Shown: piece by piece, positions 1-57,025 of the stretch
Layout of the letters: the number at the start of each line of letters is the position of its first letter
Numbering within the stretch: the first letter of the stretch is position 1
Assembly: GCA_025360005.1 (NCBI GenBank)
Contig: JANYDA010000048.1
Coordinates: forward strand, 78,048-142,047
Direction of reading: 5' to 3'
Length of the DNA: 64,000 nucleotides
Origin: Fibrobacteria bacterium
Lineage (GTDB): Bacteria; Fibrobacterota; Fibrobacteria; UBA11236
Program-made: the position numbers and the translations under genes
Notes under the pieces: generated by a model
Seen by the model: only the letters and a program-made list of their open reading frames with translations
Told to the model about the DNA's origin: nothing
The model's database searches: none

Positions 1-1857
1 CGCGCTGGCGGGATTGGTGCCGTGCGCGGAAACGGGGATGAGGCACACGTCGCGATGGCTTTCGCCGCGGCTCTTGTGGTAGGCGCGGATGACCATGAGG
101 CCGGCGTATTCGCCTTGCGATCCGGCATTGGGCTGCAGGGAAACGCCCGGCAGGCCGGTGATGGCGGCCAGATCGCGTTCCAGATCCCAGAACATGCGGC
201 GATACCCCTTGGTCTGATCCTCCGGCGCGAACGGGTGGATGTTGCCGAACTCCGGCCAGGTGAGCGGCACCATTTCCGCGGTGGCGTTCAGCTTCATGGT
301 GCAGGAACCCAGCGCTATCATGGAGGTGTTGAGGGACAGGTCCTTGTTCTCAAGCGATTTGATGTAGCGCAGCATTTCCGTTTCGCTGCGATGGCTGTTG
401 AACACGGGATGGGCCAGGATGGCGCTGTTGCGGATGAGCGGCGCGGGCCAATTGAGAGCGAGCCCGCGCGGCCATTCCTCCGCGGCTTTCGCGTCCGGCT
501 TGGGTCTGTTCACGGCTCCCGCGAAGATGGCGACGATTTCCGCCACGTCCTTCTCGGTGGTGGTTTCGTCCAGGCTGATGCCCACGTTCCCGCCCTTGGC
601 GTCTTCCAGATAGCGGAAGTTGCGGCCCGCGGCCACGGAATCCGCTTTGAGCTTGGGCAGCATGGCCGCATCCGGCAGGGAAATACGCAGCGTGTCGAAG
701 AAGGCGGCGTTGGCCTGCTTGCAGCCGAGCGTAGCCAGGCCTTTCTCCAGGGAGCGCGCCAGCGCGTGCACGCGCGAGGCGATGGCCTTGAGCCCCTGCG
801 GCCCGTGGTAGACCGCGTACATGCCGGCCATGACGGCCAACAGCACCTGCGAGGTGCAGATATTGCTGGTGGCCTTGTCCCGGCGGATATGCTGCTCGCG
901 GGTTTGCAATGCCATGCGGTAGGCGCGCTGGCCATGCGCATCGATGGTAACGCCGATGATACGTCCGGGCATGTGGCGCTTGAAGGCTTCCCTGGTGGCG
1001 AAGAAGGCGGCATGCGGCCCGCCGAAACCCATAGGCACGCCAAAGCGTTGCGCGGATCCGATGGCGATGTCCGCCCCGAAGGATCCCGGCGAAGCGAGCA
1101 GTACCAAGGCCAACAAATCCGTGGCCACGGCCACCTTGATGCCGGCGGCATGGGCCCGGGTGACCAGGTCCGCGTAGTCCGCGACGTTGCCGAAGGTGTC
1201 CGGGTATTGGATCAGGGATCCGAATGCGCCCGCCACCTGGCCGTTGGCCAAGTCCGCCTCGTCCCCGATGCGGAGTTCTATACCCAGCGGTTCCGCGCGC
1301 GTGCGCAGCACATCCAGGGTTTGCGGATGGCAGCGCTTGGAGGCGAAAAAGCCCTTGGCGGATTCATCCTCGCGGATGGAGAAGAGCATGGCCATGGCCT
1401 CGGCGGCGGCGGTGCCTTCATCGAGCAGGGATGCGTTGGCGATTTCCATGCCCGTCAAATCCATCACCGTGGTCTGGAAATTGATCAAGGCTTCCAGGCG
1501 GCCTTGCGCGATTTCCGCCTGGTACGGGGTATAGGCCGTGTACCAGCCGGGATTCTCCAGGATGTTGCGCTGGATGACGCCGGGCAGAACCACATCGTAG
1601 TAGCCGGCGCCGATGTGGGATTTGAGGACTTTATTCTGGGAGGCGAGCGCGCGCGCTTCTTGCAGGAAGCGGCTTTCGTTTTCCCAGGCCGGGAGTTCCA
1701 GCGGGGCGGCCAGGCGGATGGAGTCGGGAACGGTTTTCCGCGCCAGATCCTCCAGGCTGTCCGCGTTTACCACCTTGAGCATGTCCCGGATTTGCCCCTC
1801 GTCGGGACCGATATGCCGGGAAACGAATGCACCTTTGTTCTGAACGCTCAATTCCAT
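1..1857 (-). CDS. gcvP: Glycine dehydrogenase (decarboxylating), glycine cleavage P protein; 3' end lies outside the window
   Basis: Manual minus-strand translation from ATG 1857: MELSVQNKGAFVSRHIGP..., LENPGWYTAYTPYQAEIAQG, QRFGVPMGFGGPHAAFF, REQHIRRDKATSNIC. Confidence 0.95.
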   Translation of the reverse strand, partial: MELSVQNKGAFVSRHIGPDEGQIRDMLKVVNADSLEDLARKTVPDSIRLAAPLELPAWENESRFLQEARALASQNKVLKSHIGAGYYDVVLPGVIQRNILENPGWYTAYTPYQAEIAQGRLEALINFQTTVMDLTGMEIANASLLDEGTAAAEAMAMLFSIREDESAKGFFASKRCHPQTLDVLRTRAEPLGIELRIGDEADLANGQVAGAFGSLIQYPDTFGNVADYADLVTRAHAAGIKVAVATDLLALVLLASPGSFGADIAIGSAQRFGVPMGFGGPHAAFFATREAFKRHMPGRIIGVTIDAHGQRAYRMALQTREQHIRRDKATSNICTSQVLLAVMAGMYAVYHGPQGLKAIASRVHALARSLEKGLATLGCKQANAAFFDTLRISLPDAAMLPKLKADSVAAGRNFRYLEDAKGGNVGISLDETTTEKDVAEIVAIFAGAVNRPKPDAKAAEEWPRGLALNWPAPLIRNSAILAHPVFNSHRSETEMLRYIKSLENKDLSLNTSMIALGSCTMKLNATAEMVPLTWPEFGNIHPFAPEDQTKGYRRMFWDLERDLAAITGLPGVSLQPNAGSQGEYAGLMVIRAYHKSRGESHRDVCLIPVSAHGTNPASA

Positions 1858-3519: not shown

Positions 3520-4779
3520 ATGAAGAACCTGGTTACCCATATCGGCCCCTTGCCGGTGCAGCAGTTGGCGAAGGATTTCGGCACGCCGGCATTCATCTAT
3601 GAAAAAGCCGTGATCGAAAAACGCATCGCCGAGCTGAAGGCGTTCGAGGTGATCCGCTTCGCTCAAAAGGCTTGCTCCAATCTGGCCATCCTGGCCTTGA
3701 TGCGCAAACATGGGGTGCTGGTGGACGCGGTTTCGGCGGGGGAAATCCACCGCGCTCTCAAGGTGGGATATACGGGAGCAGGCCATCCTCCCGGCATCGT
3801 GTTCACGGCGGATCTGTTCGACGACGACGCGTTGCACTTGATCCGGGAGCATAGGATTCCCGTGAACGTGGGTTCGCCGGACATGATTTCCCAGCTCGGC
3901 AAGGTGCTGCCCGGAGCGGAAGTGACCTTGCGTATCAATCCCGGCTTCGGGCATGGGCATTCGCGCAAGGTGAATACCGGCGGCAGCTATTCCAAGCACG
4001 GCATCTGGCATACGGATCTGGAGGATTGCCTGCGTCTGGGAGTGGAGGCGGGCGTGGACATCCAGGGCCTGCACATGCATATCGGATCCGGCAGCGATTA
4101 CCAGCATCTCTCCACGGTATGCGACGCCATGGTGAAGGCGGCCAAGCGGATGGGGCCGCAACTTAAGGTGATCAGCGCCGGCGGCGGCCTGCCCATCCCT
4201 TACCGCAAGGAGCAGGCGCGCATCGACATCGCCGCCTATTACGGTTTGTGGGATAAGGCCCGCAAGGCCATCGAGAAGGACGCGGGCCATCCCGTGGGGT
4301 TGGAAGTGGAACCGGGACGTTACCTGGTGGCCGAGTCCTGTTCGCTGCTGACCCGGATCCGCTCGGTGAAAAACTCCGGCGGCAACCGCTTCTACCTGGT
4401 GGACGCGGGCTTCGATACCTTGATCCGTCCCGCCATGTACGGCGCCTATCATGAGATCTCCATCTGCGCCGCCGACGGCCGCACCGTGGGTAACGCCTTC
4501 GATACCATCGTGGCGGGGCCTTTGTGCGAATCCGGCGATGTGTTCACGCAGGAAGAAGGCGGCGTGGTCACCACCCGCAAATTGCCGGAGGCGGTGGTGG
4601 GCGATTACCTGATCCTGCATGACGCAGGGGCGTATGGAGCCTCCATGTCCTCCAATTACAATACCCGCAAGCTGGCGACGGAAGTGATGATCCAGGAGGA
4701 CGGCGCGGAGGTGATCCGGGAACGCCAGACTTTCGAGTCCATCCTCCAGTTTGAACGCGTCCCCAAAAACCTTTCCTGA
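3520..4779 (+). CDS. lysA: Diaminopimelate decarboxylase
   Basis: FAQKACSN PLP-lysine, HMHIGSG, EPGRYLVAE, GPLCESGD, GAYGASMSSNYN. Confidence 0.96.
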   Translation: MKNLVTHIGPLPVQQLAKDFGTPAFIYEKAVIEKRIAELKAFEVIRFAQKACSNLAILALMRKHGVLVDAVSAGEIHRALKVGYTGAGHPPGIVFTADLFDDDALHLIREHRIPVNVGSPDMISQLGKVLPGAEVTLRINPGFGHGHSRKVNTGGSYSKHGIWHTDLEDCLRLGVEAGVDIQGLHMHIGSGSDYQHLSTVCDAMVKAAKRMGPQLKVISAGGGLPIPYRKEQARIDIAAYYGLWDKARKAIEKDAGHPVGLEVEPGRYLVAESCSLLTRIRSVKNSGGNRFYLVDAGFDTLIRPAMYGAYHEISICAADGRTVGNAFDTIVAGPLCESGDVFTQEEGGVVTTRKLPEAVVGDYLILHDAGAYGASMSSNYNTRKLATEVMIQEDGAEVIRERQTFESILQFERVPKNLS

Positions 4780-4947: not shown

Positions 4948-6774
4948 ATGAGTAAAACGATGCGCGCCTCCTTGGCACTTCTTTGTTTCCTTTGCCTATC
5001 CCGCGCCGGCATTCCCGACTCGGTCCATCCCGACTATGCGCTGGCGGAATTGCGCATGCCCGCGCTTTTCAAGACCATGGGGTTGGCTTTTCTCGACGAT
5101 GGTACCATGGTGCTGGCCGTCATCGAGTTGACCGGCGGGGGCGAAGAGCCGGAATTGGACGTGAATGAAAAGATCTATTTGATCAAAGGCGCTTCCACGG
5201 ATTCCCTTCCGGGCGAAATCAAGGAGGTTTCCAATTTCTGGCGGCAGCTTTCCGGCGTGGTGGTGGCGCAAGGCCGCCTTTACGTTTCCGATCGGGACGG
5301 CTTCTATGAAATCCCGGATCTGAAAGCCCCCCCGGATCTCCAGGCCAACCGGAAAGCCATAGTCAAATGGCCCAACGAAAACCATTGGAACTTCGGCCCT
5401 TATTGGCATCAATGGGTGTTCACCCCGCAATACCTGAACGGCTCCTTCTATGCGCCATATTCCGGATCCATCCGCACCGGCGGCTGGTCCAACGTGAACC
5501 CCACCTCTACGCTCAGCGGAGCGTTGCTGCAATGGGATTTGGCGGGGAATCTGCAAGCTTACGCCGGGGGATTGCGTTCGCCCAACGGCGCCAATCTCAA
5601 TTCCGCCACCGGGGAGATGTTCGTTACGGATAACCAGGGCAGCTGGCTGCCCGCCTCCACCTTCATGCGCATCCGCAAGGGTCGCTTCTACGGCCATCGC
5701 CAGAGCTCTCCGGATCTGGATACCGCCGGGAACGTGTTGGGCACGCATGCGCCCAACTTCGCGGAAAGCCTTCCTTACGATCCTCCCGTGGCCTGGCTGC
5801 CGTACGGCACGGTGCGATCCTCTCCCAGCCAGCCCGTGCTTCTGCATAAGGGCACTTTCGCCGGAGATTGGCTGATAGGGGACGTGAACAATCCCGGCCT
5901 TGTCCGGGTTGGGCTCGACAAGGTGGGCGAGGAATACAACGGGGCCGTGTTCCACTTCTCGCTGGGGACCGCCAATGCCGCCATCAACCGGATGGCGGAA
6001 GATCCGGAAGGCGGGATAGTGATTGGCACCATCGCCAAAATCAGCGGCAATTGGCCCGCCGGCGACAAAAGCCCGCTGTACAGATTAACGGCCAAGAGCT
6101 GGGGATCGGCCTTCGATATCAGGTCCGTGCGCGCCTTGGACGATGGCTTGGAACTGGCCTTCACCCAGCCGGTGAATCCGGATTCCATCCGCCCGGAGCA
6201 TTTCTCCGTGAAGTCTTCGCGCTATATCCGCCAGAAGGAATATGGCATGGGAAAGCAACCGGATGAGGATAGGGTGGTGCTGGAGGCGCAACCCTCTGCT
6301 GACCGCAAGCGCGTGCATCTCAAGCTCGATAGCATGCCCTTGGACAGGGTGCTGTACCTCAAGGTGGACGGGGTGACGTCATCGGGGGGCAAGGCTTTAT
6401 GGAATTCGGAAGCCTGGTTCACCCTGAACTATGCCTCCGGGCGCCGGTGGACGGCGGACGTTTCCGGCCTGGCGGGCGCAAGCGTGGATTCCAACCCGTC
6501 CAGATTGAGCGCGCGCGCGTTACCGGCGGGGTTCGGTACCCTGGAGGTTACAGTCCGGTGCGGTCTATCCCCCGGTGGCTGCGGGGATGGCGCCGGGTTC
6601 CAGGCGAAGCTGCTCGCGCCCACGGGGAAAGTGTTGGCCACGCGCTCCGGTTCAGGCGCGGAAGCGGTCCGTTTCAGCCGGCCGGGCGATGGGCCCGGTG
6701 TCTATTTGCTGCAAGTGCTTTCCCCGCGCTCCGCCCCCAGTAACCTATCGGTTACGCAGCGCGTCGTTTTCTGA
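4948..6774 (+). CDS. Secreted beta-propeller protein (glucose/sorbosone dehydrogenase-like) with Ig-like domain and T9SS-like C-terminal domain
   Basis: Signal peptide, GLRSPNG and FVTDNQGSW motifs, C-terminal GVYLLQV. Confidence 0.7.
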   Translation: MSKTMRASLALLCFLCLSRAGIPDSVHPDYALAELRMPALFKTMGLAFLDDGTMVLAVIELTGGGEEPELDVNEKIYLIKGASTDSLPGEIKEVSNFWRQLSGVVVAQGRLYVSDRDGFYEIPDLKAPPDLQANRKAIVKWPNENHWNFGPYWHQWVFTPQYLNGSFYAPYSGSIRTGGWSNVNPTSTLSGALLQWDLAGNLQAYAGGLRSPNGANLNSATGEMFVTDNQGSWLPASTFMRIRKGRFYGHRQSSPDLDTAGNVLGTHAPNFAESLPYDPPVAWLPYGTVRSSPSQPVLLHKGTFAGDWLIGDVNNPGLVRVGLDKVGEEYNGAVFHFSLGTANAAINRMAEDPEGGIVIGTIAKISGNWPAGDKSPLYRLTAKSWGSAFDIRSVRALDDGLELAFTQPVNPDSIRPEHFSVKSSRYIRQKEYGMGKQPDEDRVVLEAQPSADRKRVHLKLDSMPLDRVLYLKVDGVTSSGGKALWNSEAWFTLNYASGRRWTADVSGLAGASVDSNPSRLSARALPAGFGTLEVTVRCGLSPGGCGDGAGFQAKLLAPTGKVLATRSGSGAEAVRFSRPGDGPGVYLLQVLSPRSAPSNLSVTQRVVF

Positions 6775-7865: not shown

Positions 7866-9655
7866 TAGCCTAGGTCGTTTGCCAGGCCCTCCCGGGTCCA
7901 TGGTATGCGCAGCGCCTGCTCGATTTGGAGCCGGTTTTCCAACTTCCATCCCTGTCGCACATCGCAGCGTAGGTAATTACCGGGACTCCGCATATCTCCC
8001 ATCAAAAAAGCCGCGCTCCAGGCCATGGCGGCCATGCGCCGGCATTCAATGCTCAGAGGGGCGGGAAGCGATCCGGAATACCCTCCGCCTTTCCAGGTAA
8101 ACGCCGTTTTGACGGCCCAATCCCCCCGCCGCCAAGCTAGGCTTTGTCCCCAGCCTCCTCGTCCCTGGGTTCCCCCGCCGGATCCGTTCGAGCTGCCCGG
8201 CCCGCGCGATCCGGCCCTTAGGAAGGCCGCCGTGGCTCCCGCCTCGTGGGTCCATTCGCCCAGGATTTGGATAACCGCCAGGTTACCCTCTCCAGCCACC
8301 AGGCCCTGATCCAAGCCCCAATCCGCACCGCCGCCGCCATCGATACGGGCCCGGTAGCCTCTCCAAGCGGCCAAGGGAAATCGCGTGCGGGCCGACAGGC
8401 CGCCCTCGCCGCGCCCGGGCAGGATCCAACGTCCGTCCAGGGTATCGCGCAGGTAACCCCGGGGGGATTGCAACGGGTTGGCCCAGCCCGCGTCCGCCTG
8501 CCGCAATTGCAACCGCCAACCGGCCGAGTCCGCATCTGGGGAGGCCAGGGCCGCTTCCAGATAGCCGCCCCAATCCGGTTGATCCGTCCCGTTCCCGGCT
8601 TTTCGCCCCGGACCCGCCGATGCACCGGAGGGCGGGGGCGCATCGGTATAGGAAGCGGCCAAGCCCAGGTTCCAGCGAATGAGATTTTGCGCGCGATTGG
8701 CCAACGACGCGCCGGCGATGGAAACCTCCGTGGCCGGGCCGGCATCGGGTTCAAACCGCTGCCTTGCGGCTTGCGCCCGGAAATCCCAACCGGCCTCCAC
8801 CGCGCCCAAGCGTCCGGCGGCGCCCGCGGCGAGAAGGACGGCGTCATTGCGGGCCGGGGAAGCGATGGAAGCCGAGGAAGCCGAGATGGCGGCGCGGTGC
8901 AAACGGTTCCAAGTCGCGGCCGCCTCCAGGATCCATTTTCCCGCGCGCGCGCGCAATCCCAATCCGTCCAAGGCGGTTTCCGGGGAGCCAAGCGCGCCCT
9001 CGATGCCGGAGCTTCCGGACCAACCCGCATAAAACCGGCTGCCGACGACGAAGCCCAGGCGCGTTTCCGCTTGAGCCGCGTGCAGGTGTCCGGCAAGCAG
9101 GGAAAAGCGGGGGGCGCCCACGCGCAGGAAGCGCGTTTCCATCCGGTAATCCCGCAGGGAAAGGCGTCCCGCAAGCCCCGGAAGCGAGCCTTTCGCGCGC
9201 AGGAGGGAAGGTTGGCCTCCCGCGGCATCCGGATTTTGCCGCGGCCGGGCGGTTTGCGACAAAGCGAGAAGCGCCTTGGGTTCCCGATCCCGCAGGGATC
9301 CGTGCAGGGTATCTTCCATGTTACCCGGGGCCGTCTCGCCGCCGGCCACGGCGAGGTCCGGGCAAACCGCGGCCATCGCTTCCCCTATCTCACGCCAGCG
9401 CAGATCCCCATCCCCGGTTTCCGGGGTTTCCGCCCAGGCCTGGCAGCCGTCATCCGGCCGGTCCGCCAGGAAATCGAGGAAGGCATCGTAGGCCTCCTGC
9501 CCGGCCTGGCCTGCCGAAACCCTATCCCGCAAATGTTCCAGAGCGGACTCCGCATCCGGGGAATAGGCCGCCGTCCCCCCCGGGAGACAGGCCACGATGC
9601 TAAGGCTTAAAAGCCGGGCAATGGCGATTATTTGGGGATTATGGGAAGAATTCAA
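7838..9655 (-). CDS. Large exported Gly/Ala-rich protein, probable outer-membrane beta-barrel
   Basis: 605-aa ORF (TTG start), signal-like N-terminus, alternating beta-strand pattern at the C-terminus (YQLRLTAAL); family not recognised with certainty. Confidence 0.5.
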   Translation of the reverse strand: MNSSHNPQIIAIARLLSLSIVACLPGGTAAYSPDAESALEHLRDRVSAGQAGQEAYDAFLDFLADRPDDGCQAWAETPETGDGDLRWREIGEAMAAVCPDLAVAGGETAPGNMEDTLHGSLRDREPKALLALSQTARPRQNPDAAGGQPSLLRAKGSLPGLAGRLSLRDYRMETRFLRVGAPRFSLLAGHLHAAQAETRLGFVVGSRFYAGWSGSSGIEGALGSPETALDGLGLRARAGKWILEAAATWNRLHRAAISASSASIASPARNDAVLLAAGAAGRLGAVEAGWDFRAQAARQRFEPDAGPATEVSIAGASLANRAQNLIRWNLGLAASYTDAPPPSGASAGPGRKAGNGTDQPDWGGYLEAALASPDADSAGWRLQLRQADAGWANPLQSPRGYLRDTLDGRWILPGRGEGGLSARTRFPLAAWRGYRARIDGGGGADWGLDQGLVAGEGNLAVIQILGEWTHEAGATAAFLRAGSRGPGSSNGSGGGTQGRGGWGQSLAWRRGDWAVKTAFTWKGGGYSGSLPAPLSIECRRMAAMAWSAAFLMGDMRSPGNYLRCDVRQGWKLENRLQIEQALRIPWTREGLANDLGYQLRLTAAL

Positions 9656-9725: not shown

Positions 9726-11099
9726 ATGGTCGTCACAGCGATGTCGAAGATTTTCCACAGCCTCCGCTTCCAGCTTCCCGCCGTGGTGCTGAGCGTGTTC
9801 GTGGGCATACTTTTCCTGCTGATGTTGTTCTTCCACGAAATGACCGGCATTTTGGTCAAGACCCGCCAATTGGCGGAATCGGCGGAGATCAACGACTACG
9901 TGGCCAGTTGGCTCACGAATCTCTCTTCCAGCGCCCGCGAGCGGACCAAGCTGATGTCCCTGGGGAACGAGAGCTACCTACGTACCTTCCAGGTTACCCT
10001 GAACGAAGTCAACGATCTATACCGGGAGATCGAGCGCATCGGGCCGGATACCGCGGCCGCTTCCACCCAGCAATTGCGCGCCCTGCACGACAAGCATCTG
10101 GAGTACATGGAGCTGCTGGACGGATTCGCCAAGGACCAGACCATCCGCATGCTTTCCAGCCGCGCGCAGGCCGCGGCCCTCCCCGCGCCTCCCCCGGAAA
10201 TCCCCGCGCCCGTCCCCGTCCCCGTGCGTAAGGCCCGCGGCTTCGGCAAACGCGGGCGCATGGCCGCCAAGGCGCCTCCCGCGGGCGGAAAGGGCGCCGG
10301 ATATCACGGCCGCACCGCCGCTAAAGCCGGTCCCCGCGGGCATAAGGCGTTCCCGCGCGAAGGGAGGATCGTCCTGCGCAAGTTCGAGCCTTTGCCTTCG
10401 TCGGCGGGGGTGGAGGCAAGCAAGCAGATCGAATTGGATTCGGCCACCAACGAGACCTTCAAGGCGTATGAGCAGACCCTCCGGGAAGGGCTCTACCTTT
10501 CGCAGGAAACCATGCGGGGCGAACGCAAGGAAAAGCTGAACGGCCTGCGGAATTCCGTCGGCCGCGCCAAAGATCGCCTCATCTATTCTCTCCTGCTGCT
10601 GCTGGCCATGGTGGGCTACGTGGCCGTTATATTGAAGTGGAAAATCCTCGATCCCATGAAGAGCCTTGAGCAAGGTGCCATGGAAATAGGGAAGGGATCC
10701 CTGGGGTACCAGGTGAACGTGGCTTCCCGCAACGAAATCGGGGAGTTGGCGGACGTGTTCAACCGCATGTCCGTGCAACTGGATGAGAAGCGGAACGCGG
10801 AGATGCGGCTGCGGCGCCTGGAAGCAATCGAGCAGATTGTGCGGAGCGTGAACCATGAGATCAACAATCCGCTCATGATCATCAGCGGCAACGCGGAATA
10901 CCTGTTGGCCCTCATGGAAGGCGCGGACGAAGGGCTCAAGACCAAGTTGTACGCCATTGTGGCGGAGGTGCGCCGCATCTTCATGGTGACCCAGCGGCTC
11001 AAGGAAATCAAGGAGCCGGTGACTGAGGATTATATCGGCGCTCAGGATCAGATGATCGATTTGCTGCGCTCCAGCCAAATCCGCCCGAGGGAGTTCTGA
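9726..11099 (+). CDS. Membrane sensor with HAMP and HisKA (DHp) domains but no HATPase domain
   Basis: Two TM helices, HAMP (RNEIGELADVFNRM), H-box VNHEINNPL; protein ends about 80 aa after the His with no N/G boxes. Confidence 0.85.
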   Translation: MVVTAMSKIFHSLRFQLPAVVLSVFVGILFLLMLFFHEMTGILVKTRQLAESAEINDYVASWLTNLSSSARERTKLMSLGNESYLRTFQVTLNEVNDLYREIERIGPDTAAASTQQLRALHDKHLEYMELLDGFAKDQTIRMLSSRAQAAALPAPPPEIPAPVPVPVRKARGFGKRGRMAAKAPPAGGKGAGYHGRTAAKAGPRGHKAFPREGRIVLRKFEPLPSSAGVEASKQIELDSATNETFKAYEQTLREGLYLSQETMRGERKEKLNGLRNSVGRAKDRLIYSLLLLLAMVGYVAVILKWKILDPMKSLEQGAMEIGKGSLGYQVNVASRNEIGELADVFNRMSVQLDEKRNAEMRLRRLEAIEQIVRSVNHEINNPLMIISGNAEYLLALMEGADEGLKTKLYAIVAEVRRIFMVTQRLKEIKEPVTEDYIGAQDQMIDLLRSSQIRPREF

Positions 11100-15696: not shown

Positions 15697-15720
15697 GCGG
15701 AAAAATCCAAGATCTTTGCA

Positions 15721-15813
15721 AATTGAAAACCGCAAAACGGAAAACCGAAGAGCTTTTCGGCACTTTATAGCGAGAGAGGGCTTGCTCCCACCCTCAATTT
15801 TCAATTTTCAAAA
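15721..15813. repeat. Second inverted array of 7-bp tandem repeats
   Basis: AATTGAA AACCGCA AAACGGA AAACCGA (15721-15748) and CTCAATT TTCAATT TTCAAAA (15793-15813); AATTGAAAA and TTTTCAATT are reverse complements. Confidence 0.55.
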
Positions 15814-15817
15814 TCCC

Positions 15818-17331
15818 ATGATAAGCAATACAGAACCGGCCCTGAACCTTTGGGGCCATTGCACCCAGGCTTTTCTTTCCTCCCAGGGCTGGCATCCCGG
15901 CGATGACCGTCTGCTGCTCGCCGTTTCCGGCGGCGCCGATTCCATCGCTTTGCTGCATTGGGCCCGGCGCGCGACAGCTTTGTCCGGAGGCAGCCTGGCG
16001 GTAGCCCATGTCCATCACGGACTCCGTCCCTCCGCTACCGGTGAGCAGGACTTTGTAGCCGCCTTATGCCGCGATATGGAGATCCCGTTTCTGTCCCGCT
16101 CCCTGAACCCGGCCTCCCGGCCGCCTCGCGAGTCCGTGGAGATGTGGGCGCGCCGCGAACGCTATGCTTTCTTCGCCGAGGCCGCCGCCGCAGCCGGCGC
16201 CCGCTGGATCCTGACCGGCCATCATCGCGACGACCTGGTCGAAACCGTGTTCCAGCGCTTGGGGCGGGGAACGGGCCCGCGCGGACTGAAAGGTATTCCG
16301 TTCCGGCGCGGCAACATCGTCCGGCCCTTTCTCAACCGCAGCCGCGCCCAGATCCTGGACTACCTGCGCCTGTGCGGCGCGTCCTGGCGCGAGGATGAAT
16401 CCAACGCCGATATCCGCATCGACAGGAATGGGTATCGCCACCGTTACCTGCCCGCGCTGCGGTCGGCGGAACCGGACCTGGATGCGCGCATCCTGGCCAT
16501 GGCCCTGCGCCTGCAATCGCTGGGGGACGGCATTGATCGATTGGAAGGGGAGGCCGGATGGTTGCAATACGATGGGGAGGCCAAGCCATTCCTTTCCCGC
16601 GCGCCCATCGCCGCCGCAGCGGCGGCAGACGATTGGGAATCCCTGGAGTTCTGGCTGCGGAAACTGCTGCGCGCCGCCATTCCCAACCCCGATGCCGCGG
16701 GCTCAGTATCTGCGGGTTCCATACCCATGGGACATGCCGCCGCGCCATCCCTGGCCGTTACCAAAGGGATACTTCAGGAGTTCCGCCGCCAATGGCGGAC
16801 CGACCCCGTGAGACTGAGGGTTCCGCTCTCGGCAACGGCCGCATTGAAATGCGAAAATGGGGGGGTTTATTGCGTAAACCCGGTCGAGACAACCCTCAAG
16901 GGAGTGAGGCGGGCAAAAAAAGGCTGCTCGCCGCAAGTCCAAAGGGTTATACTGAATCAAGGCTGCGGCGAGGTTTCCTGGCAATGGGGAAACCGGACCT
17001 ATACATTGGCGGCGCGGCGGTATTCCCGGCCCCGGGAACTGGAATTCCCCGAGCCATGGGCAGGAAGGGCGATCTTTGATGCGGCACTCTTTTCTTGTAC
17101 ATTGGAGATACGAACTCGCGAGGACGGCGATCGCTTTTCCCCGTTGGGACTTCAAAGCCGTTCGCGAAAATTGAAAACATTTTTCAACGAGGAGAAGGTT
17201 CCGATCGGCGTGAGGGAAATACTCCCTTTAGTCCTCGGCGGCCGGATGGTCGCCTGGGTCCCCGGTCATGGGATATCCGATTTCTTCAAGGTCAGCGGAT
17301 CGACTTCTCACATCCTTGAGTTGGTGCTTAA

Positions 17332-17347
<16 letters not shown>
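15818..17347 (+). CDS. tilS: tRNA(Ile)-lysidine synthetase
   Basis: [10 protein letters not shown]-loop, HVHHGLR, ARRERY, TGHHRDD, WREDESN, TilS C-terminal domain. Confidence 0.93.
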
Positions 17348-19476
<2,129 letters not shown>

Positions 19477-19517
19477 TCCTTTAATCCTTTTTCCCCAGGC
19501 GGATCGCCGGTACCATC

Positions 19518-20522
19518 ATGAGTTTTCCGGACCCCGATCCCCCTCCCCCCTCTTCGACCGAACCGCAGCCGGCCCCTACAGGGGCCGGCTCGTTTTCCTT
19601 CCTGGCCCCCCCGGGGGCTTCCGTTTCCGAAGCGCCCCGCGCGGTTCCTCCCCACGGTTGGGATAAGCCCATCGCCCATGCCAAGCCGCGTCCCTGGTAC
19701 GCGGGTGACCGCGTCCTGGGCGGGGACAGGCCGCTCATCATGGGTATCCTCAACGTTACCCCGGATTCCTTCCATGACGGCGGCCGCCATGCGGGCGCGG
19801 ACCAAGCGGTGCGCCATGCCGCGGCCATGCTGGAGGCCGGCGCCGACATCATCGACATAGGCGGGGAATCCTCGCGGCCGGGCGCCGCATCCGTGCCGGA
19901 GGCCCAGGAACTGGCCCGCACGCTTCCCGCCGTGCGCGAAATTGTGAAGCGCTTCGGCTGCCCCGTCTCCATCGACACGGTCAAAGCCAACGTGGCCCGC
20001 GCCGCGCTGATGGAAGGCGCCTGCATCATCAACGATATCAGCGCCATGACGTTCGACCCGCTGATGCCGGAAGTGCCCAAGGCTTTCCGCGCGGGCGTGG
20101 TGCTGAACCATATCCGGGGCAGGCCCAGCGGCATGCAGGATGCTCCTTCCTACGGCAACGTGGTGGCGGACGTGGCGGCATTCCTGAAAGAACGCATCCA
20201 ACTCCTGGCGGCCATGGGGTTGGCCAAGGATCGTATCGCCGTGGATCCGGGCATCGGTTTCGGCAAGCGCCTGCAGGACAATTACCGCCTCATCGCGGAA
20301 TGCGAAACCTTGGATGCCTTGGGTTGCCCCATCCTGCTCGGCATGTCCCGCAAATCCTTCATCGGCAAGACGCCGGGGCTTCAGGATTCCGATCGCCTCT
20401 TTCCCAGCGTGGCCTTGGCCGTATTCGCCGCTCTCAAAGGCGTTTCCATCCTGCGTGTGCATGACGTACGGGAAACGCGCGAGGCCTTGGCCATGATCGC
20501 GGCGGTGCGCGGTCCGGGCTGA
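19518..20522 (+). CDS. folP: Dihydropteroate synthase
   Basis: MGILNVTPDSF, DIGGESSRPG, DPGIGFGK, GMSRKSF, LRVHDV; Pro-rich N-terminal extension. Confidence 0.96.
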   Translation: MSFPDPDPPPPSSTEPQPAPTGAGSFSFLAPPGASVSEAPRAVPPHGWDKPIAHAKPRPWYAGDRVLGGDRPLIMGILNVTPDSFHDGGRHAGADQAVRHAAAMLEAGADIIDIGGESSRPGAASVPEAQELARTLPAVREIVKRFGCPVSIDTVKANVARAALMEGACIINDISAMTFDPLMPEVPKAFRAGVVLNHIRGRPSGMQDAPSYGNVVADVAAFLKERIQLLAAMGLAKDRIAVDPGIGFGKRLQDNYRLIAECETLDALGCPILLGMSRKSFIGKTPGLQDSDRLFPSVALAVFAALKGVSILRVHDVRETREALAMIAAVRGPG

Positions 20523-23506: not shown

Positions 23507-26500
23507 ATGAAAACCCTGCATCCCAAACTCATCCCGTTCTTCCTTCTGCTCGCGCTTGCCGTTTGGCGCTGCAATTTCTCCAACCAACCCGCAGCAGAGA
23601 ACCTGCTGACGGTCAAGCTTGACGACTCGCTCTCCACCTACGATTCCATCCGCATCGACATCCTCTATCCCAACGGCACCGTCTATAAGGATTCGATCTT
23701 TTACGGCAAATACGCTCCCGCCGCCGATCATCAACTCAAGGATCTCGATCTGGGCGCGAATCCTCCCGCCAATTACCAAATCCTGATCACCGGGATCCGC
23801 GCCGGCAATAAAGTCCTGGTATTCAGCATCCCGGTGACCCCGAAAGGCGCCGAGCCCCCGAAAATACTGGTGCGGGAGCCGCCCCGGGACACGGTCAAAA
23901 CGCCCGTGGACACCGTCCCGCGCAGGGTCAATCTCATTACCCCATCCCCGCTCATCCTGGCGGCGACGGCCCAGGCAACCGCCCTCAAGGCGGAAGTCCA
24001 ACCCAGGGCGGCCAATCAGGCCCTGCTATACTCCGGATTCGACACTGCGGTCGCCACCCTGGATGCCGCAGGCAACATCCGCCCCATCCGGGCCGGGGAA
24101 ACCGATATCACCGTCCGCTCGCAAGGCGATACCTCCCTCACCGCCCTTCTCCATCTCAAGATCATCGAACCCGTGGACGTAAAAGGCGTCACCTTGACTC
24201 CGGACAAGCTCACCCTCTATCTGGGCGGCGATGCGTATAAATTGAACGCCCAGACCTCCCCGCCGGACGCCAAGGTGAGCGTGATCTTCCAGAGCGACAA
24301 CGACACCGTCGCCAAGGTGGCCGCGGACGGTACCGTGCAGCCGGGAAAAGCGGGCCAGGCTTCCATCCGGGTCTTTCCCGCGGGTTTTCCCTCCCTGTTC
24401 CTCACCTGCCAGGTCACGGTGGAAATAGATCCCCCCGTACTGGATGCGGGATCCGATCGTGATGTGCGGCCCAAGGAGATAGTAACCTTCCCGTTAACGG
24501 TGACGCAGAAGAACGGCGGCGTGGCCGCCTTGAAATGGGACCTGGATGGGGATAATGTCTGGGACGATTCCGTAAAAATCCCTACCGCATCTCCGCAGCA
24601 CGTCTATGACGGCAAGGACTCCCTGATCACGGTCCATTTCTACGTACGCGATACCGAAGGCAACTTCATCAACGTCTCCCGCAAAGTGCACGTGGGCCAA
24701 ACGCTGGCGGCGCCTGTCTTCACCTCCGCCACCACGCCCTCGCCCACGCGACTGGCCAAACCCGCTTGGGCCTGGACAGGTAACCCGGGCGGTACTGGCG
24801 CCTTCCGCTACGTCTTCGATGGAAAGCCCGAAGCGGAAACCAGGGCCACCACCTTCATTCCCGATTCCCTACCCGACGGCGAACACACCCTGGTCGTGCG
24901 CGAGCTGGACGCCTCCGGCCGCCTTTCCGACTCCGCCACTCGCACCATCAAGGTGGTAACCCTGGGGCCCATCGTCACCATCACCTCCCCGAATGGCGGC
25001 TTTCTGACCAATGCCGCCGTGGTCGGCGTCGCCTGGACGGTCAAACAGGCGAGCGGCGCCATCCTCTCGAACAGCAATTCCGAAAAGCTGGCCGGCAAGC
25101 AAGGCGCCGTCAAAATCATCCGCGAAGAATCCGATATCTACGGCAACAGAGGCGCCGACACCGTGACAATCTTCCGCGACACCATCGCGCCTGAGCCGCC
25201 TTCCTTCACCGCGCAAACATCTCCGGTCAGCGTCAATGCAGCCAATACTTCGCCCGTGCAATGGGCCTGGACGCGCGCCGCGCCCAACGACTACTTCATG
25301 GTTTCCCTCAATGGCGCCCCTGCGGTCAAGCAGGCATCCACGGCCTATACGCTTCCCAACGCGGCCAATGGGACCTATATCCTCAACGTGCTGGAAAGCG
25401 ATTCGGCAGGCAATCTCTCCACCGGGGCCAGCTACTCCATCTTCGTGGACCGTACTGCTCCGCCCACGCCTTCCGTCTCGGGGACCACCCCGACCGGCAA
25501 TCCCACCTGGTCCTGGACCCCCGGCGCAGGTTCGGACGGCGCCAAGATTTACCGCTACAAGCTTTCCACCGCTGCGGCCTACTCAACGGAAACCAATTCC
25601 ACTTCCTATAGTCCCAGCGGTCTTGCCACCGGGAGCTATACCCTGCAAGTGCAAGAGCGGGATGGGTCGGGCAATTGGTCGGGCGATGGGACGTGGAAAA
25701 TTGATGTGGACAAGACGGGGCCGGTGGTGACGGTGGGGAAGCCGACGCCTTTTGGACGAGTGACCAGCGTAAACCCGGTCGTCTCCGGATCGGTGATGGA
25801 TGAAAACGGTATCAGGAAGGTGGAATACAAAATCAATACGGGAACTTACGCCCCCGTGACTCCTACTGGGAGCAACTGGACTTTCTTGGACAACTATGAT
25901 GCGGGTGTGAATACGATTTGGATCCGTGGCGAGGATCAATTCGGGAACAAGGATTCCGCGTCCATTAAAATTTACAAGTATCCGAATGTCGTGTTCGTAC
26001 GGAAGAATGCGACGGGAACGGGAAAATCTTGGGAGGATGCTTATGGGGAAATGTATGATGCGCTGGATTCCACAAAGGTTTATCCGGTGGGAACAAATAT
26101 CTGGGTCACAAAAGGAAGCTATGGAGGCTCACCTTCAAGACAGAATGATTTGCCGATATACCATTCCGATATCCATGTATTAGGCGGATTCTTCGATGAT
26201 CACCCCTCGGTGGATTCCACGCAAAGGGATATCTCCCTAGGTGTATCAACGATTTCAAAAGTTTTATGGATTGGAGAACCGGGAACCCTTATCCATGATT
26301 TTATTCTCGATGGCTTCACGCTTTCCGATAGGCTCTGGATTGCCAATGCGGATCACTATCGGAATTCCTTTCGGAACCTGAAATTCAGCAAGATCACCTC
26401 AACGACTAATATTCTGTTAACGCGCGGTGGCAACATTTTCGAGAATTGCGAATTCTCCGATTTGCTTTCAACGGAAGACAGTCCCATTTACCTCAAGGGG

Positions 26501-27892: not shown

Positions 27893-27900
27893 TGTGTTTC

Positions 27901-29295: not shown

Positions 29296-29324
29296 TTTTA
29301 CTCCAATGGCCTTAATTTGATCAA

Positions 29325-30704: not shown

Positions 30705-31249
30705 GGGAATGCTACGCGAAAACCTTTTGCAAAGGGAAACCTCGACCCCGGGGTAAATCTAACCCCAGCCTGGAAGCATTTCAGGCCAAAAGTGGCTTCA
30801 GCCCGGTAATTGGGCGGGCATTCACGTTTATCGGCCAAAATGATGGCGCGCGAACATTAATTTCGCATTCTAACAAGTGCGTTCCCCTGGCCGTGGGCAT
30901 TGGTTGGGGAGGGTTTTCATTCCCTACCCCGCGCCGGGGATGAATTTAGGGAAGCGGGTTTTGGAAAATGTGCCCAGGGGCGGGTCGAGCGGTAGGCGAC
31001 GGCGGTAGGGAACAGGCGGCCTTGGAAGCAGATGGGGAGGGGGCGGATAGGTAACATTTGTGATACGGGGGGCGGGGATAGCCATTGGAAACGGGACCGG
31101 GGCTGTGGAGGCGGCATTCCTGCATGGAAACTGCCTCCCCGATCGCTCAGTAAGGGGGCCGTCGCGTGTTTCCGGCACGCATCGGTGCCTGCTTGCTACG
31201 GGCATCGCGTGAACGTATTTTACCCCTACCTCAAAGGAAAGGAAATAGC

Positions 31250-33015: not shown

Positions 33016-33759
33016 TCATCCTTCCAACCTGAAATTGTAAGTGACCACGAAGCGGCTGGGAACCTTGGCGCCGTCCTTGATCAAGGGTTGGAACAGGCTG
33101 GCCCGGGCCGCGCGCAAGGCGCCCGCGTCGAAATCCTTCCCGGCGGCGCGCTTTACGGAAGCATCGATCACGCGCCCTTCCGCGTCGATGGTTACCCAAA
33201 CCAGCACCACGGCCTGCACTCCCTGCTCCTGGGCCCACTCCGGATAATCGGCCATCGCCTGCTTGAGGAAGCCGGGCGCACGGTCCAATTCCACGGGGGC
33301 GGGAGGCAAAAGGGCCGGGGCTTTGCGCACGATGCTGTCCGCCGGGGTAGCCAGCGTGTTACCCGTGGCCACGGCCATGTCGCCTTGGTCCGAGGTCTCA
33401 TCCTCCTGCAACCCGAAGACCGGCGGGGGCGGTTCCGCGTCAGCCGCCTTGGGAGCGGTGCGTTCTACGGGCGGCGGGGACACCTTGGGCGGTTCCTTGA
33501 CTTCCACGGGCGGCGGCGGGATCTCTTCCACCCATTCCACCGTCTCTTCCCCAGGCGGAGTATGCGCCGGGAGTTTGCCCGCAAAATAGAAGGCCAATCC
33601 CGCCGCGAACAGCGCGGCTCCCGCCAAACCCAGGTCCATGCCGCCCGGTCCCTTGACCGGAGGCAGGTGCAGGAAGATCTTTCCTGCCGTCCCATCCTTT
33701 CCGAAATAGCCTTCCTGGGGCGGGCGCCGCTTGCGTTGCCGGGATGTTGCCGGAATCAT
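33016..33759 (-). CDS. tonB: Energy transducer TonB
   Basis: TM helix, Pro-rich linker, DYPEWAQEQGVQAVV...IDAEGRV TonB_C domain. Confidence 0.88.
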   Translation of the reverse strand: MIPATSRQRKRRPPQEGYFGKDGTAGKIFLHLPPVKGPGGMDLGLAGAALFAAGLAFYFAGKLPAHTPPGEETVEWVEEIPPPPVEVKEPPKVSPPPVERTAPKAADAEPPPPVFGLQEDETSDQGDMAVATGNTLATPADSIVRKAPALLPPAPVELDRAPGFLKQAMADYPEWAQEQGVQAVVLVWVTIDAEGRVIDASVKRAAGKDFDAGALRAARASLFQPLIKDGAKVPSRFVVTYNFRLEG

Positions 33760-36254: not shown

Positions 36255-36279
36255 GGTAACCTCCGTGGTACATCCGTTT

Positions 36280-38802
36280 TCAGAATTGGTATTCATAGCC
36301 GACCAATATGGGGAGCAGGGGTATCTGGTAGGTTTCCTGCTTCTGGGGGGGATTCTTGCTGGTGTCGAAGTTGATCAGGAATACGTTCTGCCGGTCCGTA
36401 AGGTTGAGGATGGTCCAGTACAGCCGCCACTTGCCTTCCCGTCCCCAATCGAATACGGTAGCATCCAGGCGGAAATAGTCTTTGCGGACGGTTCCGTTAT
36501 GGCGGCCCTGGCGCAGGTAGGTGTTGTCCTTGAGATAGGTGGCGGGGCCCGCGCCGTCGCCGCCGTCCGCGCCTTGGTCCGGTTCATGCACCGAGTAATA
36601 GTCCTCGAACTGGGTATAGGGCAGGCCGGTATGGTAATTGGCCTGCAAGGTAGTGCGCAGAAAAAGACCTCGTTTGCCCGAATTCCAGAAAGAATTTTCC
36701 GGCTTCCCGCGCCAGTTGAGATTGAGCTTGGCCTTCACCGTGTTGCGCTGATCCCAATCGGCGGCATAGGCTTCAAAGCTGTGGGTGCCGAGAGAGTTGG
36801 TGTAGTCCTTTTGCCGCAGCACGGCCTGGGAAACGCCCCAACTGGCTTCGCCGCTCAGCGCGCCTTCTTCCCGCGCAACCGTCAGTTCCGTCCCCGCGGC
36901 ATAACCGTCCTGGGTGGTGAAATCATCGGAGATCTGGCTGCCGCTCGCCTGGATCTCGGCCTGGGTACGGTAGGGAAAGTATAACGGCAGATCCCGGATA
37001 TCCTTGTAATAGCCCTCCAGGGAAACCTTCAGATGCAAGCTGGTAAGGTCGGACCGTTCCGCGCCCAGGGAAAGCAGGGTGGAGTGCGAAGGCTTGATGG
37101 ATCCTTTCGCCGGATACCAGAATTCATTGAAGGTTTCCTGATCCGTCCAGCGGATGCTGGTCAGGTATTGGTGGTAGATGCCGGCATGCGCGTCCAGCCG
37201 CCAGTCCCGCGTGGGCCTCCAGGTATAGGTGGCGCGAGGATCCCAGGACATATCGTTGAGTTCCGGATACAGGTAGCCGCGCAATCCTACCGTCAGGCTG
37301 TGCTGGGGGGACAATACCCACCGATCCTGCAGGTAGCCCGCATAGAGATCGGTGGAGGTCTTGTCCTGGGTGTCGACGTTGGAGCTTTCCTGGCCGATGG
37401 CGGCGCGGAAATGGTTGTACTCGCCGCCCATGGTAAGCAGATGACCGGCCCCGGCGTTCAGGGACAATTCCTGGCGCGCGTTCCAATCCTCCATGGAGTT
37501 GCTCAGGCTCTGGATGTCCCCGAATTTCCATTTCTGCGAGAAGCGGGAATAGGCCATGGTACCTGAATATTCCCAGCGCTCCCCCAGGCGCAGCTTGAGG
37601 TTGACGGGAATGGCCGTGTTACCCCAGGTTATGTTGATGGGATCCAAGGTCAAATCGTCCTGCCCCTGATAGGCGGAGACGCGCAGGGTATCGCCGCCTT
37701 TGCCGTATGCCACGCTGCCCTGGGCGTCATAGAAGTAATAGGGCAGACTCAGACTGGTCACGCCTAGGGCCCGCCCGGCCGAGAGGGCCTCATCGATCCA
37801 AGTGCGCCGGCCGGCGCCTACCCAGGACCAGTTGCCTTTGCGGCCGTCGGTCTCCAGGGATCCGGAAAGCGTGGTAACGCGCGCGGTACCTTGGGCCCAG
37901 GTTTCCCGCGCGGCTCCGGTATCGGTGGCGCCGCCGTCCTTGCTGGTCACCGACAGCACCGAGCTCAGGCGATCGCCATAGCGGGAATCGAATCCGCCCT
38001 TGTAGAAGTCCATGCCGCCCACGGCGTCGGCCAGGAAGGTGCTGAAGATGCCGCCGAAATGCATGGGCGAATACACGATGGCGTTGTCGAAGAGGATCAG
38101 GTTCTGATCGCTTGCCGATCCGCGCACGTAAAGCTTGGTGGAAAAGTCCGAAGAGGCGACCACGCCCGGCAGCGCCTGCACGGCGCGGATGACGTCCGGT
38201 TCCGCGAGCCCGGGAAGCCGTTTGATCTCCTTGGCGCTGACATGGCTTTGGCCCGCGGCGCGCGCGGGGCGGCGGCGCGCCTTCACGTTCACGGTGCGGC
38301 CGGAATTCTCGCGCCCGCCGTCCACCACGGTGGCGGAGGCCGCCATCGCCGCAGCGGCCGTGGAAGCGCCGGCTCCCGGGGATGCCGGAACCGTATCGGT
38401 CCCGAAGGCCCCGGAAAAATACTCGGGACCCGCGGATGCGGCCGTGTCCGCGGTGAAGGCGAGAGGGGCCAGATCAAGGGTGTCGTAGGCGCCGGCGCTC
38501 ACCGAGGTGCAGGCCCGCCGCGCGCCGTCCACGAGGCAAAGCTCCAACCGCGAGCTCCGGGCGGCGCTGTCGAGGGGGAGGGAGGCGGTCCAAGCGCCCG
38601 CGGAATCCACCGGGAACTCGGATCCTCCCAGGGAAATGCGCGAGCCCGCCGGAGCCGAACCGCGGAAGACCACGGTGCCGGGTGCGCTCTTTATCAGCGC
38701 GGCGCCCGCGCTATCCGGGGCCGCTGCGGTCCCTCCGTCCGGGGAGGGAGTCGCCAGGGCCGACGAGGCCGTCCACATCAACGCAACAATGAGCCGATTC
38801 AT
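36280..38802 (-). CDS. TonB-dependent outer-membrane receptor
   Basis: Plug DVIRAVQALPGV...YVRGSASDQNLILFD, YKGGFDSRYG, C-terminal beta-barrel ending GYEYQF. Confidence 0.92.
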   Translation of the reverse strand: MNRLIVALMWTASSALATPSPDGGTAAAPDSAGAALIKSAPGTVVFRGSAPAGSRISLGGSEFPVDSAGAWTASLPLDSAARSSRLELCLVDGARRACTSVSAGAYDTLDLAPLAFTADTAASAGPEYFSGAFGTDTVPASPGAGASTAAAAMAASATVVDGGRENSGRTVNVKARRRPARAAGQSHVSAKEIKRLPGLAEPDVIRAVQALPGVVASSDFSTKLYVRGSASDQNLILFDNAIVYSPMHFGGIFSTFLADAVGGMDFYKGGFDSRYGDRLSSVLSVTSKDGGATDTGAARETWAQGTARVTTLSGSLETDGRKGNWSWVGAGRRTWIDEALSAGRALGVTSLSLPYYFYDAQGSVAYGKGGDTLRVSAYQGQDDLTLDPINITWGNTAIPVNLKLRLGERWEYSGTMAYSRFSQKWKFGDIQSLSNSMEDWNARQELSLNAGAGHLLTMGGEYNHFRAAIGQESSNVDTQDKTSTDLYAGYLQDRWVLSPQHSLTVGLRGYLYPELNDMSWDPRATYTWRPTRDWRLDAHAGIYHQYLTSIRWTDQETFNEFWYPAKGSIKPSHSTLLSLGAERSDLTSLHLKVSLEGYYKDIRDLPLYFPYRTQAEIQASGSQISDDFTTQDGYAAGTELTVAREEGALSGEASWGVSQAVLRQKDYTNSLGTHSFEAYAADWDQRNTVKAKLNLNWRGKPENSFWNSGKRGLFLRTTLQANYHTGLPYTQFEDYYSVHEPDQGADGGDGAGPATYLKDNTYLRQGRHNGTVRKDYFRLDATVFDWGREGKWRLYWTILNLTDRQNVFLINFDTSKNPPQKQETYQIPLLPILVGYEYQF

Positions 38803-38936: not shown

Positions 38937-39023
38937 CCCCTTGGGTAACTTGCAAGGTACTGCGGGGCCGGGAAGCCGCAGGCGATACGGAGGGCCGGGG
39001 CGCCGCCATCCGCCAAATGCAGG

Positions 39024-43850: not shown

Positions 43851-44036
43851 ATTGTTGCAATATAGTAGCGGGGCGCGTCGGTATGCCGCAAATTGTCGCC
43901 CAAGTGCATTTCCACGGGGCGAACGGAAGCGGGGGTGGGGACGGCCCGGCTGAATGCCGGTAGGGAGGCCCCGAAAAAAAACCTGGGGTAACCTCATTGC
44001 TACCCACTAAGAAGGAGTACGGGGTTTCCTTCCCGA

Positions 44037-45857: not shown

Positions 45858-46335
45858 ATGGCCGTCCGTTTTCAATGGGAATAAATTTCTCAACAGCGCC
45901 TGCGCAAAAATAGACCTATTCCCCACGATTGCCGCCCAATACAGGGCCCTTCATGTCCACTTCCCTGTTTCCCGGTGGTTTCGTGTTTCCGCCCCTAGCC
46001 AGGGGGAGCGGAATTATCGTGCCCTGCCAATTAAAGTACCGTGGAAGGCTTCGACATTGCCCTAAATCGCATTTTCCGGGTTTTTCTTACGCCAACCAAA
46101 CGAAATGTCGGAAGGGTAGGGCTATCGAGTTCGCAAATGAGAAATACCGGAGCGGTTCCGGGCCCTCTGTGGGCCTCATGTAACTCACAAGTTACGGGAC
46201 ATTCATGCTCCATCCCCTGATCACGGTTTGGCCGGTTTCCGCATGGTGGGTTCGTAGCATAGAACGGCATGATGGGCGCGTACTTCGCGTCCTTAAAGGA
46301 CGGACATCAGACGGGTGTTAGGGGGCTGCAAGGAG

Positions 46336-56967: not shown

Positions 56968-57025
56968 GAGCCCCCATAGTGTACAAAAATCGGGCCGCAG
57001 GTTACATTCCAAAAGGAGCAAAACC

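Follow-up and report, generated by a model that had tools for sequence, protein, structure and literature searches.

A 64,000-nucleotide stretch of DNA from a Fibrobacteria bacterium (GenBank assembly GCA_025360005.1, contig JANYDA010000048.1, positions 78,048 to 142,047; hereafter the window) contains 20 unique copies of the split word GTAAC-N6-GNTAC, where 0.32 copies are expected from base composition. This corresponds to a 62-fold enrichment. On the opposite strand the word reads GTANC-N6-GTTAC. A preliminary description of this DNA had proposed selection or molecular drive on the DNA word as such, core genes included, and had stated that copies are written into coding sequence with disfavoured synonymous codons. 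The occupancy of encodable contexts, synonymous resampling, the spread of copies over codon phases, strands and intergenic DNA, retention at orthologous sites and comparison with outgroups all fit this proposal, and they support a force acting on the DNA word and not on the proteins. Beyond the window, we found the enrichment in a single clade only, made up of uncultured soil Fibrobacteria.

The word is sharply defined. The spacer is exactly 6 bases in every copy, and spacers of 0-5 and 7-13 bases gave only 0-1 copies in the window. Variants with a single mismatch occurred near background, the free position apart, and the stricter form GTATC-N6-GTTAC was observed 7 times compared to 0.04 in dinucleotide shuffles. 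GTAAC alone showed no enrichment, with 63 occurrences in the window versus about 92 expected, and 23 of the 63 were located within the word. Thus, the unit under pressure is the whole 16-mer. Every copy is split by N6 and has at least one strict GTAAC half (20 of 20), 3 of the 20 are perfect palindromes, and the N base is close to random (A in 7 copies, G in 7, C in 3, and T in 3). The presence of a strict half in every copy together with a near-random N indicates that recognition is intrinsically asymmetric, and is not that of a relaxed palindrome.

Outside the specified bases, position -1 is G in 16 of the 20 copies and the second base of the spacer is a pyrimidine in 18, while spacer position 5 is A in 31 of 61 pooled copies, which are partly orthologous. 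The true recognition sequence may be slightly longer than the word as counted, in the form GGTAAC-N-Y...R-N-GNTAC. Apart from the G at -1 the flanks of the copies are unrelated, and since this base is all that they share, a mobile-element remnant was ruled out as the source of the repeats. An assembly artefact was also ruled out, because the word is present in independent metagenome-assembled genomes (MAGs) from different studies. A literature search with several spellings of the word found no paper that contains it.

The codons that the word uses are rare in the window (GGT 9%, CGT 8%, GTT 13%, GTA 9%, and TTA 3%), as the preliminary description had claimed. Because the word dictates these codons, a bare comparison of codon frequencies is partly circular, and non-circular tests were used besides. 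When the proteins were kept fixed and codons were redrawn from window usage, the resampled sequences had a mean of 0.19-0.20 copies, compared to 15-16 observed. The maximum was 6 copies in one run, which is unexplained, and 2 copies in a second run, although the means of both runs agreed. The 57 kb of coding DNA in the window has 22 amino-acid contexts able to encode the word, and 15 of them (68%) are filled. In comparison, 52 composition-matched control words, made with other spacers or with swapped or permuted halves, were found in 13 of 1237 contexts (1%). Codon choice at the word also departs from that for the same amino acids elsewhere in the window: Val-Thr was encoded as GTT-ACN in 7 of 8 word-compatible hexapeptides versus 7 of 64 other occurrences, and Gly-Asn was encoded with GGT in 4 of 6 word-compatible contexts versus 3 of 59. 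In outgroup genomes, the corresponding peptides are written with common codons.

The number of encodable contexts (22-23) is ordinary for words of this kind, for which the control-word mean is about 24, and the pressure therefore acts mainly on synonymous positions; shuffling of amino acids gave a lower number, 15 ± 4. Occupancy differs by phase, with 11 of 14 phase-2 contexts filled and 2 of 6 phase-1 contexts, which need both GTA and TTA. The lower occupancy at the costliest codons looks like a balance between drive and codon selection. Gene boundaries were set by Pfam matches, external gene calls and what is conserved in relatives; on this basis, 15 of the 20 copies were assigned to coding sequence, in 13 genes, and 5 were intergenic, so that the earlier count of 20 copies with 15 in coding sequence stands. 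Non-coding DNA makes up 10.7% of the window, yet has 25% of the copies. The coding copies start at codon position 1 in 2 cases, position 2 in 11 and position 3 in 2, and lie in both sense orientations, in agreement with the claim that different frames and strands are used. A protein-motif or codon-pair artefact was ruled out by the several frames and strands, the intergenic copies and the synonymous resampling.

In order to place the word phylogenetically, relatives were taken from an FtsH-based scan with one genome per species (80 loci), and clades were defined from the FtsH tree. Compared to the ratio of 62 in the 64-kb window, the observed/expected ratio was 36 in the FtsH loci of a core clade of 12 on that tree (156 kb) and 23 in the more distant L011 (22 kb, GC content 41%). 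It was 1.0 in ten neighbouring Fibrobacteria (195 kb), 0.5 in distant Fibrobacterota and other phyla (875 kb), and 0.4 in 1.09 Mb of unrelated metagenome contigs obtained from a GcvP scan, in which the relatives among the matches listed had at most 61% identity. Beyond the FtsH loci, other contigs of the clade MAGs showed 21-fold enrichment. On the same tree, three MAGs titled Bifidobacteriales or Bifidobacterium (L010, L025 and L026) were placed firmly inside Fibrobacteria, and two titled Bacteroidetes (L047 and L049) inside Ignavibacteria; these five are probably mislabelled records.

Several contigs of relatives' MAGs carry the word, which points to a feature of many loci that is probably genome-wide. 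MAG GCA_028287505.1 has it on three separate contigs, with 8 copies in 58 kb versus 0.28 expected, and MAG GCA_028287465.1 on two contigs, with 3 copies in 45 kb versus 0.19 expected. Extension of the L006 contig into non-syntenic DNA gave 2 further copies in 9.8 kb. For L014, whose chromosome is complete, the sequence around ftsH has 2 copies, and a 21-kb sample taken 700 kb from it lacks the word. Density varies about ten-fold between lineages: the window and L006 have 0.31-0.37 copies per kb, and most other lineages 0.07-0.25. According to crude gene calls, 12-57% of encodable contexts were filled in the motif-positive relatives, and about 1 in 60 in those that are clearly motif-negative. 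A de novo search for a different word, or dialect, in the motif-poor relatives gave no convincing candidate, the 4+4 scans being dominated by codon periodicity. In L166, one of the motif-poor relatives, synteny with the window stops at a resolvase gene and is followed by hypothetical genes of low GC content (0.51-0.53); this region (15451-20423) is probably an integrated island.

The word is kept at orthologous sites between genomes whose synonymous positions have largely diverged. Four-fold degenerate sites of the window differ by 35-46% from those of its closest relatives, compared to about 46-47% in unrelated high-GC genomes, and synonymous sites are thus nearly saturated. In the core clade, all nine specified bases were kept in 13 of 23 compatible orthologous contexts. 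This is four times the rate of equally rare-codon controls from the window (14%), and the word was kept in 0 of 9 compatible orthologous contexts of the outgroups. The copy in folP is kept in L005, L006, L007, L011 and L020, is one base off in L003 and L004 through a change of GTT to GTG, and is two bases off in L001 and L002, where GGT and GTT are replaced by GGC and GTG. The copy in tilS is also found in L006, L008 and L021, where the spacer and the N base differ, and its CGT codon alternates with CGC. The copy in the sensor gene is kept in L004 and L021, and a site in this gene was gained in L011. The folP changes in L001 to L004, the tilS alternation and the L011 gain show turnover at synonymous positions among relatives, which the preliminary description had anticipated.

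Two further copies have counterparts in L170. The xylanase copy is matched at the equivalent position of the L170 orthologue. The intergenic copy upstream of the TonB-dependent receptor occurs in the same place in L170 (9843-9858), about 140-160 bp upstream, with a different spacer and N base. Since four-fold sites of L170 differ by about 37% from those of the window in this comparison, at least some non-coding copies are maintained.

The 20 copies are listed in Table 1. All of the codon readings quoted in the preliminary description (those of folP, gcvP, lysA, the sensor, tilS, the kinase and the VSGAL(L) site) proved correct. The name Omp85 given there to the gene at 53554-57150 did not hold: this gene, on the minus strand, matches PD40 and Peptidase_MA_2 and is a PD40/Tricorn/peptidase-MA-like protein. 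Its orthologues match Tricorn_N and Tricorn_2nd, as for a large Tricorn-like periplasmic peptidase, and not BamA/Omp85.

Table 1. Copies of GTAAC-N6-GNTAC in the window (strand "." marks perfect palindromes)
Positions	Strand	Location	Codons and peptide	Codon position
947..962	+	gcvP (gene on -)	CGT ATC ATC GGC GTT ACC = RIIGVT	2
4490..4505	+	lysA	GGT AAC GCC TTC GAT ACC = GNAFDT	
6536..6551	-	608-aa hypothetical gene	GGT ACC CTG GAG GTT ACA = GTLEVT	
6740..6755	.	near 3' end of 608-aa hypothetical gene; GTAAC-N6-GTTAC	AGT AAC CTA TCG GTT ACG = SNLSVT	
9309..9324	-	conserved 605-aa hypothetical gene (- strand)	GGT AAC ATG GAA GAT ACC = GNMEDT	
9982..9997	-	HAMP/HisKA sensor	CGT ACC TTC CAG GTT ACC = RTFQVT	
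16432..16447	-	tilS	GGG TAT CGC CAC CGT TAC = GYRHRY	3
19744..19759	-	folP; GTATCCTCAACGTTAC	GGT ATC CTC AAC GTT ACC = GILNVT	
24780..24795	+	Big_2/beta-helix surface protein	GGT AAC CCG GGC GGT ACT = GNPGGT	
31051..31066	+	intergenic, ~100 bp upstream of NmrA-like gene		
33347..33362	-	tonB (- strand)	GGT AAC ACG CTG GCT ACC = GNTLAT	
36256..36271	+	intergenic, 25-bp gap from receptor stop codon to lipoprotein start		
37874..37889	+	TonB-dependent receptor (gene on -)	GGT ACC GCG CGC GTT ACC = GTARVT	
38945..38960	+	intergenic, ~140 bp upstream of TonB-dependent receptor start		
40823..40838	+	LytS-type kinase	GTA GCT TTG GCG TTA CCT = VALALP	1
43988..44003	+	intergenic, upstream of second LytS-type kinase (called start 43754)		
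46180..46195	.	intergenic, upstream of GSDH-type dehydrogenase		
50104..50119	.	GH10 xylanase	CGT AAC GGG AAT GTT ACC = RNGNVT	
54088..54103	+	PD40/Tricorn-like peptidase	ATG TAC CTC CGC GGT TAC = MYLRGY	3
54837..54852	+	PD40/Tricorn-like peptidase, second copy	GTA TCC GGC GCG TTA CTC = VSGALL	1

A few observations were made around these genes. At the 3' end of folP in L006, the most motif-rich relative, two copies stand in direct tandem 20 bp apart from start to start (13711-13746, GTAACgtgtatGATACctggGTAACgtatacGATAC). A split Y1_Tnp transposase remnant of the IS200/IS605 or RAYT type (L162, 4847-5498) lies 2 kb from folP, also in the most motif-rich relative. The word includes TTAC, the target of IS608-type elements, and this is probably a coincidence. 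In tilS, at 16757-16772, the peptide VTK(E/G)IL is encoded as GTT ACn AAA GAG ATA CTn in nine relatives, which produces a conserved GTTAC-N6-GATAC. The halves of this string have the wrong orientation and it is not a copy of the word, which shows that protein constraint alone is able to fix such strings. Lastly, a three-gene cassette at 26795-30704 with a lower GC content (about 0.54) has no copy, and the one context in it that could encode the word is left empty, which would suit DNA of recent acquisition that has yet to accumulate the word.

The orientation of copies appears to switch along the window: of those before about 22 kb, 5 are minus and 2 plus, and of those after it, 9 are plus and 1 is minus. 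The sign of the GC skew changes near this point (about 25-28 kb). The orientation of the copies tracks gene strand. A GTAAC starting at codon position 3 of the sense strand would create an in-frame TAA, which closes off this placement; fewer contexts are thus open to that orientation, which explains the bias. Compatible contexts number 8 versus 11 for the two orientations, and their occupancy of 4 of 8 versus 9 of 11 is not significantly different. The GC skew is negative where genes lie on the plus strand and positive where they lie on the minus strand; the coding strand is C-rich, and the skew tracks it because C-ending codons are preferred. The skew switch is a gene-orientation effect, with no evidence in it of an origin, a terminus or replication polarity.

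Few other genomic words are known to be comparably abundant, and the word described here is not a member of the uptake signal sequences (USS) of Pasteurellaceae, the DNA uptake sequences (DUS) of Neisseriaceae or the highly iterated palindrome HIP1, since it is bipartite and asymmetric and occurs in another phylum. Its likeness to them is one of pattern only. USS and DUS are likewise short, sharp and tens to hundreds-fold over-represented (PMC2817400, PMC2397512, PMC3630211), and they accumulate in coding DNA by molecular drive (PMC2817400, PMC2397512). They too are found on either strand, in every frame and between genes, enter core genes where the protein tolerates them, and are family-specific with a density that varies between lineages. 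They differ in being contiguous 9-12-mers, whereas the word has the form 5-N6-5 with one degenerate position and lacks a contiguous 9-12-base core. In addition, the hosts of USS and DUS are proven to be competent with a measured uptake bias, while the present word, from the phylum Fibrobacterota, is known from sequence alone.

HIP1 (GCGATCGC) of cyanobacteria is similarly hyper-abundant, at 15-300-fold compared to 62-fold here (PMC5861425, PMC4390886, PMC13756078). Its orthologous sites are kept beyond the prediction of codon usage, a property that the present word shares, and its abundance varies between lineages, some of which have lost it. The function of HIP1 was obscure for decades, and a connection with orphan methylases and transformation has since been made (PMC5861425, PMC4390886, PMC13756078): it is read by the orphan methylases DmtA and DmtC, with a methylation-dependent boost of transformation (PMC13756078; bioRxiv 10.1101/2024.09.10.611283). 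Unlike the word, which is split and asymmetric, HIP1 is a contiguous perfect palindrome with identified methylases. A dispersed 11-mer of Corynebacterium (GCTTATCGACG) is also contiguous and has a strand-specific C-rich tail, unlike the word; this case is unchecked and is not independent evidence.

In architecture, the word resembles the targets of Type I restriction-modification systems, being asymmetric and bipartite, with a fixed non-specific spacer within the range of 5-8 bp and adenines in both halves. Type I sites such as that of EcoKI (AAC-N6-GTGC) have unequal specific halves around a non-specific 6-bp spacer, all-or-none specificity, and adenines on opposite strands about one helical turn apart, all as in the word. 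We know of no Type I target that is enriched in its host genome. Type I specificities also change fast between strains, whereas the word is 62-fold enriched and common to species near synonymous saturation.

We tentatively read (G)GTAAC-N6-GNTAC as a lineage-specific genomic tag that is favoured in the exchange or repair of own-kind DNA, and hold this with somewhat less than even confidence. A single sequence-specific reader would recognise double-stranded DNA through two unequal modules with centres about 11 bp apart, of which one would demand GGTAAC and the other would tolerate any base at one position (GNTAC). Type I specificity subunits, or their methyltransferases, have such a two-module geometry. 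DNA bearing the word would be favoured in exchange or repair within the lineage, by preferential uptake or recombination and possibly with a methylation mark, and near-matches would be driven to perfect matches wherever the protein permits. A preference of this sort is established for USS and DUS (PMC2817400, PMC2397512), and for HIP1 in its methylated form it is now proposed (PMC13756078; bioRxiv 10.1101/2024.09.10.611283). Protein constraint and the price of using very rare codons would set the limit on density, and lineages in which the reader is weakened or lost would decay towards background. A more specific form of this proposal, in which the Type I-like word serves as a self-DNA tag, probably via methylation, and biases uptake or recombination to own-kind DNA, is conceivable but rather doubtful.

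A number of points weigh against the tag reading. Genes for competence, pili, hsdS/hsdM or other methyltransferases were not seen in the window or in the relatives' loci with gene calls, and a literature search found nothing on natural transformation or competence in Fibrobacterota. Known uptake sequences are contiguous 9-12-mers and not bipartite. A recogniser of perfect sites only has no obvious stepwise path from a context with three mismatches to a perfect site. All data from the genome itself are those of a single 64-kb window, and its last 9 kb lack a copy. Additionally, the ten-fold variation in density among close relatives would also fit a patchy, mobile system; for example, 31 kb from a genome with 87% CysS identity contains 1 copy, and none of its 3 contexts is filled, among them the orthologue of a context that is filled in the window.

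Among other explanations, the word could be the target of a clade-conserved orphan bipartite methyltransferase (Type I-like HsdS/HsdM) with a housekeeping role unrelated to DNA exchange, for instance in strand discrimination during mismatch repair, replication control or chromosome cohesion, comparable to Dam/GATC and CcrM/GANTC. The Type I-like architecture with asymmetric halves and a non-specific 6-bp spacer, the adenines on opposite strands 10-11 bp apart (A3/A4 on top and the A opposite T14 on the bottom), the very sharp recognition, and conservation of the word over a clade spanning 41-66% GC all suit such an enzyme. So does the spacing of one copy per 2-10 kb, which is on the scale at which methyl-directed repair acts. 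We nevertheless regard this role as unlikely, because known housekeeping methylation words are short, occur often by chance and show no 60-fold drive against codon bias. Close relatives that differ ten-fold in density would be unusual for a core function of this kind, and the window and the sampled loci with gene calls showed no methyltransferase or hsd gene. Binding sites of a nucleoid-organising or segregation protein, similar to ParB/parS, Noc, SlmA or MatP/matS and perhaps restricted to one chromosomal domain that includes the window, would have the geometry of a helix-turn-helix dimer, given a near-palindromic 16-mer with half-site centres 11 bp apart. Intragenic copies are tolerated for parS and Noc sites as well, and there is hardly any copy in the last 9 kb of the window or in the syntenic 31 kb of L164/L166. 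Known systems of this kind have tens of sites per genome, however, and one copy per 3 kb with about 68% of encodable contexts filled is far above them; the enrichment on three separate contigs of GCA_028287505.1 (8 copies in 58 kb versus 0.28) and the strict asymmetry, which speaks against a homodimer, make this explanation quite improbable. A functionless footprint of biased repair or gene conversion that turns near-matches into the word, in the manner of very-short-patch repair, would account for changes that are almost wholly synonymous, for 22-23 encodable contexts versus about 24 in controls (no clear sign of proteins altered to fit), and for the variable density between lineages, and a repair-type drive was proposed for HIP1 (PMC4390886). 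A nine-base bipartite specificity would still need a dedicated reader protein. The repair biases known to us shift word frequencies by fractions and not 60-fold, and we consider a pure footprint very unlikely.

The remaining two alternatives are less probable still. The apparent switch of orientation near 22 kb, with the change in the sign of the GC skew nearby, could point to a polar, replication-oriented signal such as Chi (RecBCD/AddAB) or KOPS (FtsK). As described above, orientation follows gene strand, the in-frame TAA constraint explains the bias, and the skew merely tracks the coding strand; moreover, the 3 of 20 copies that are perfect palindromes have no polarity, and known polar signals are contiguous 5-8-mers, so that we give this explanation hardly any weight. 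Operators of a global transcription factor of the CRP/FNR/NtcA type share the site geometry (5-N6-5; GTA-N8-TAC), and five copies lie upstream of or between genes in the TonB-receptor/LytTR locus, including the receptor-upstream copy conserved in L170. Such operators are extremely improbable as an explanation of a word with 75% of its copies (15 of 20) intragenic at arbitrary positions, with encodable contexts near saturation, and with an all-or-none sharpness in which one-mismatch variants stay near background, unlike the degenerate sets of operators.

Known hyper-abundant genomic words are very few (USS, DUS and HIP1), and each of them has shaped ideas on kin-biased gene exchange and molecular drive. 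New in the present case are the phylum and the split architecture with the geometry of a Type I specificity subunit. If the reading of the word as a self tag is true, it would be a further self-word system after USS, DUS and HIP1, the first with split asymmetric recognition and the first in the Fibrobacterota-Chlorobiota-Bacteroidota (FCB) group, and a lineage so far known only through metagenomes would then be expected to transform naturally and with a preference for kin. The range of density in the clade, from background to saturation, provides a natural gradient, and comparison of density with gene content should point to the reader protein. As a strong lineage marker the word is also of practical use in binning, and it offers a candidate handle for DNA delivery into organisms that currently have no genetic system.

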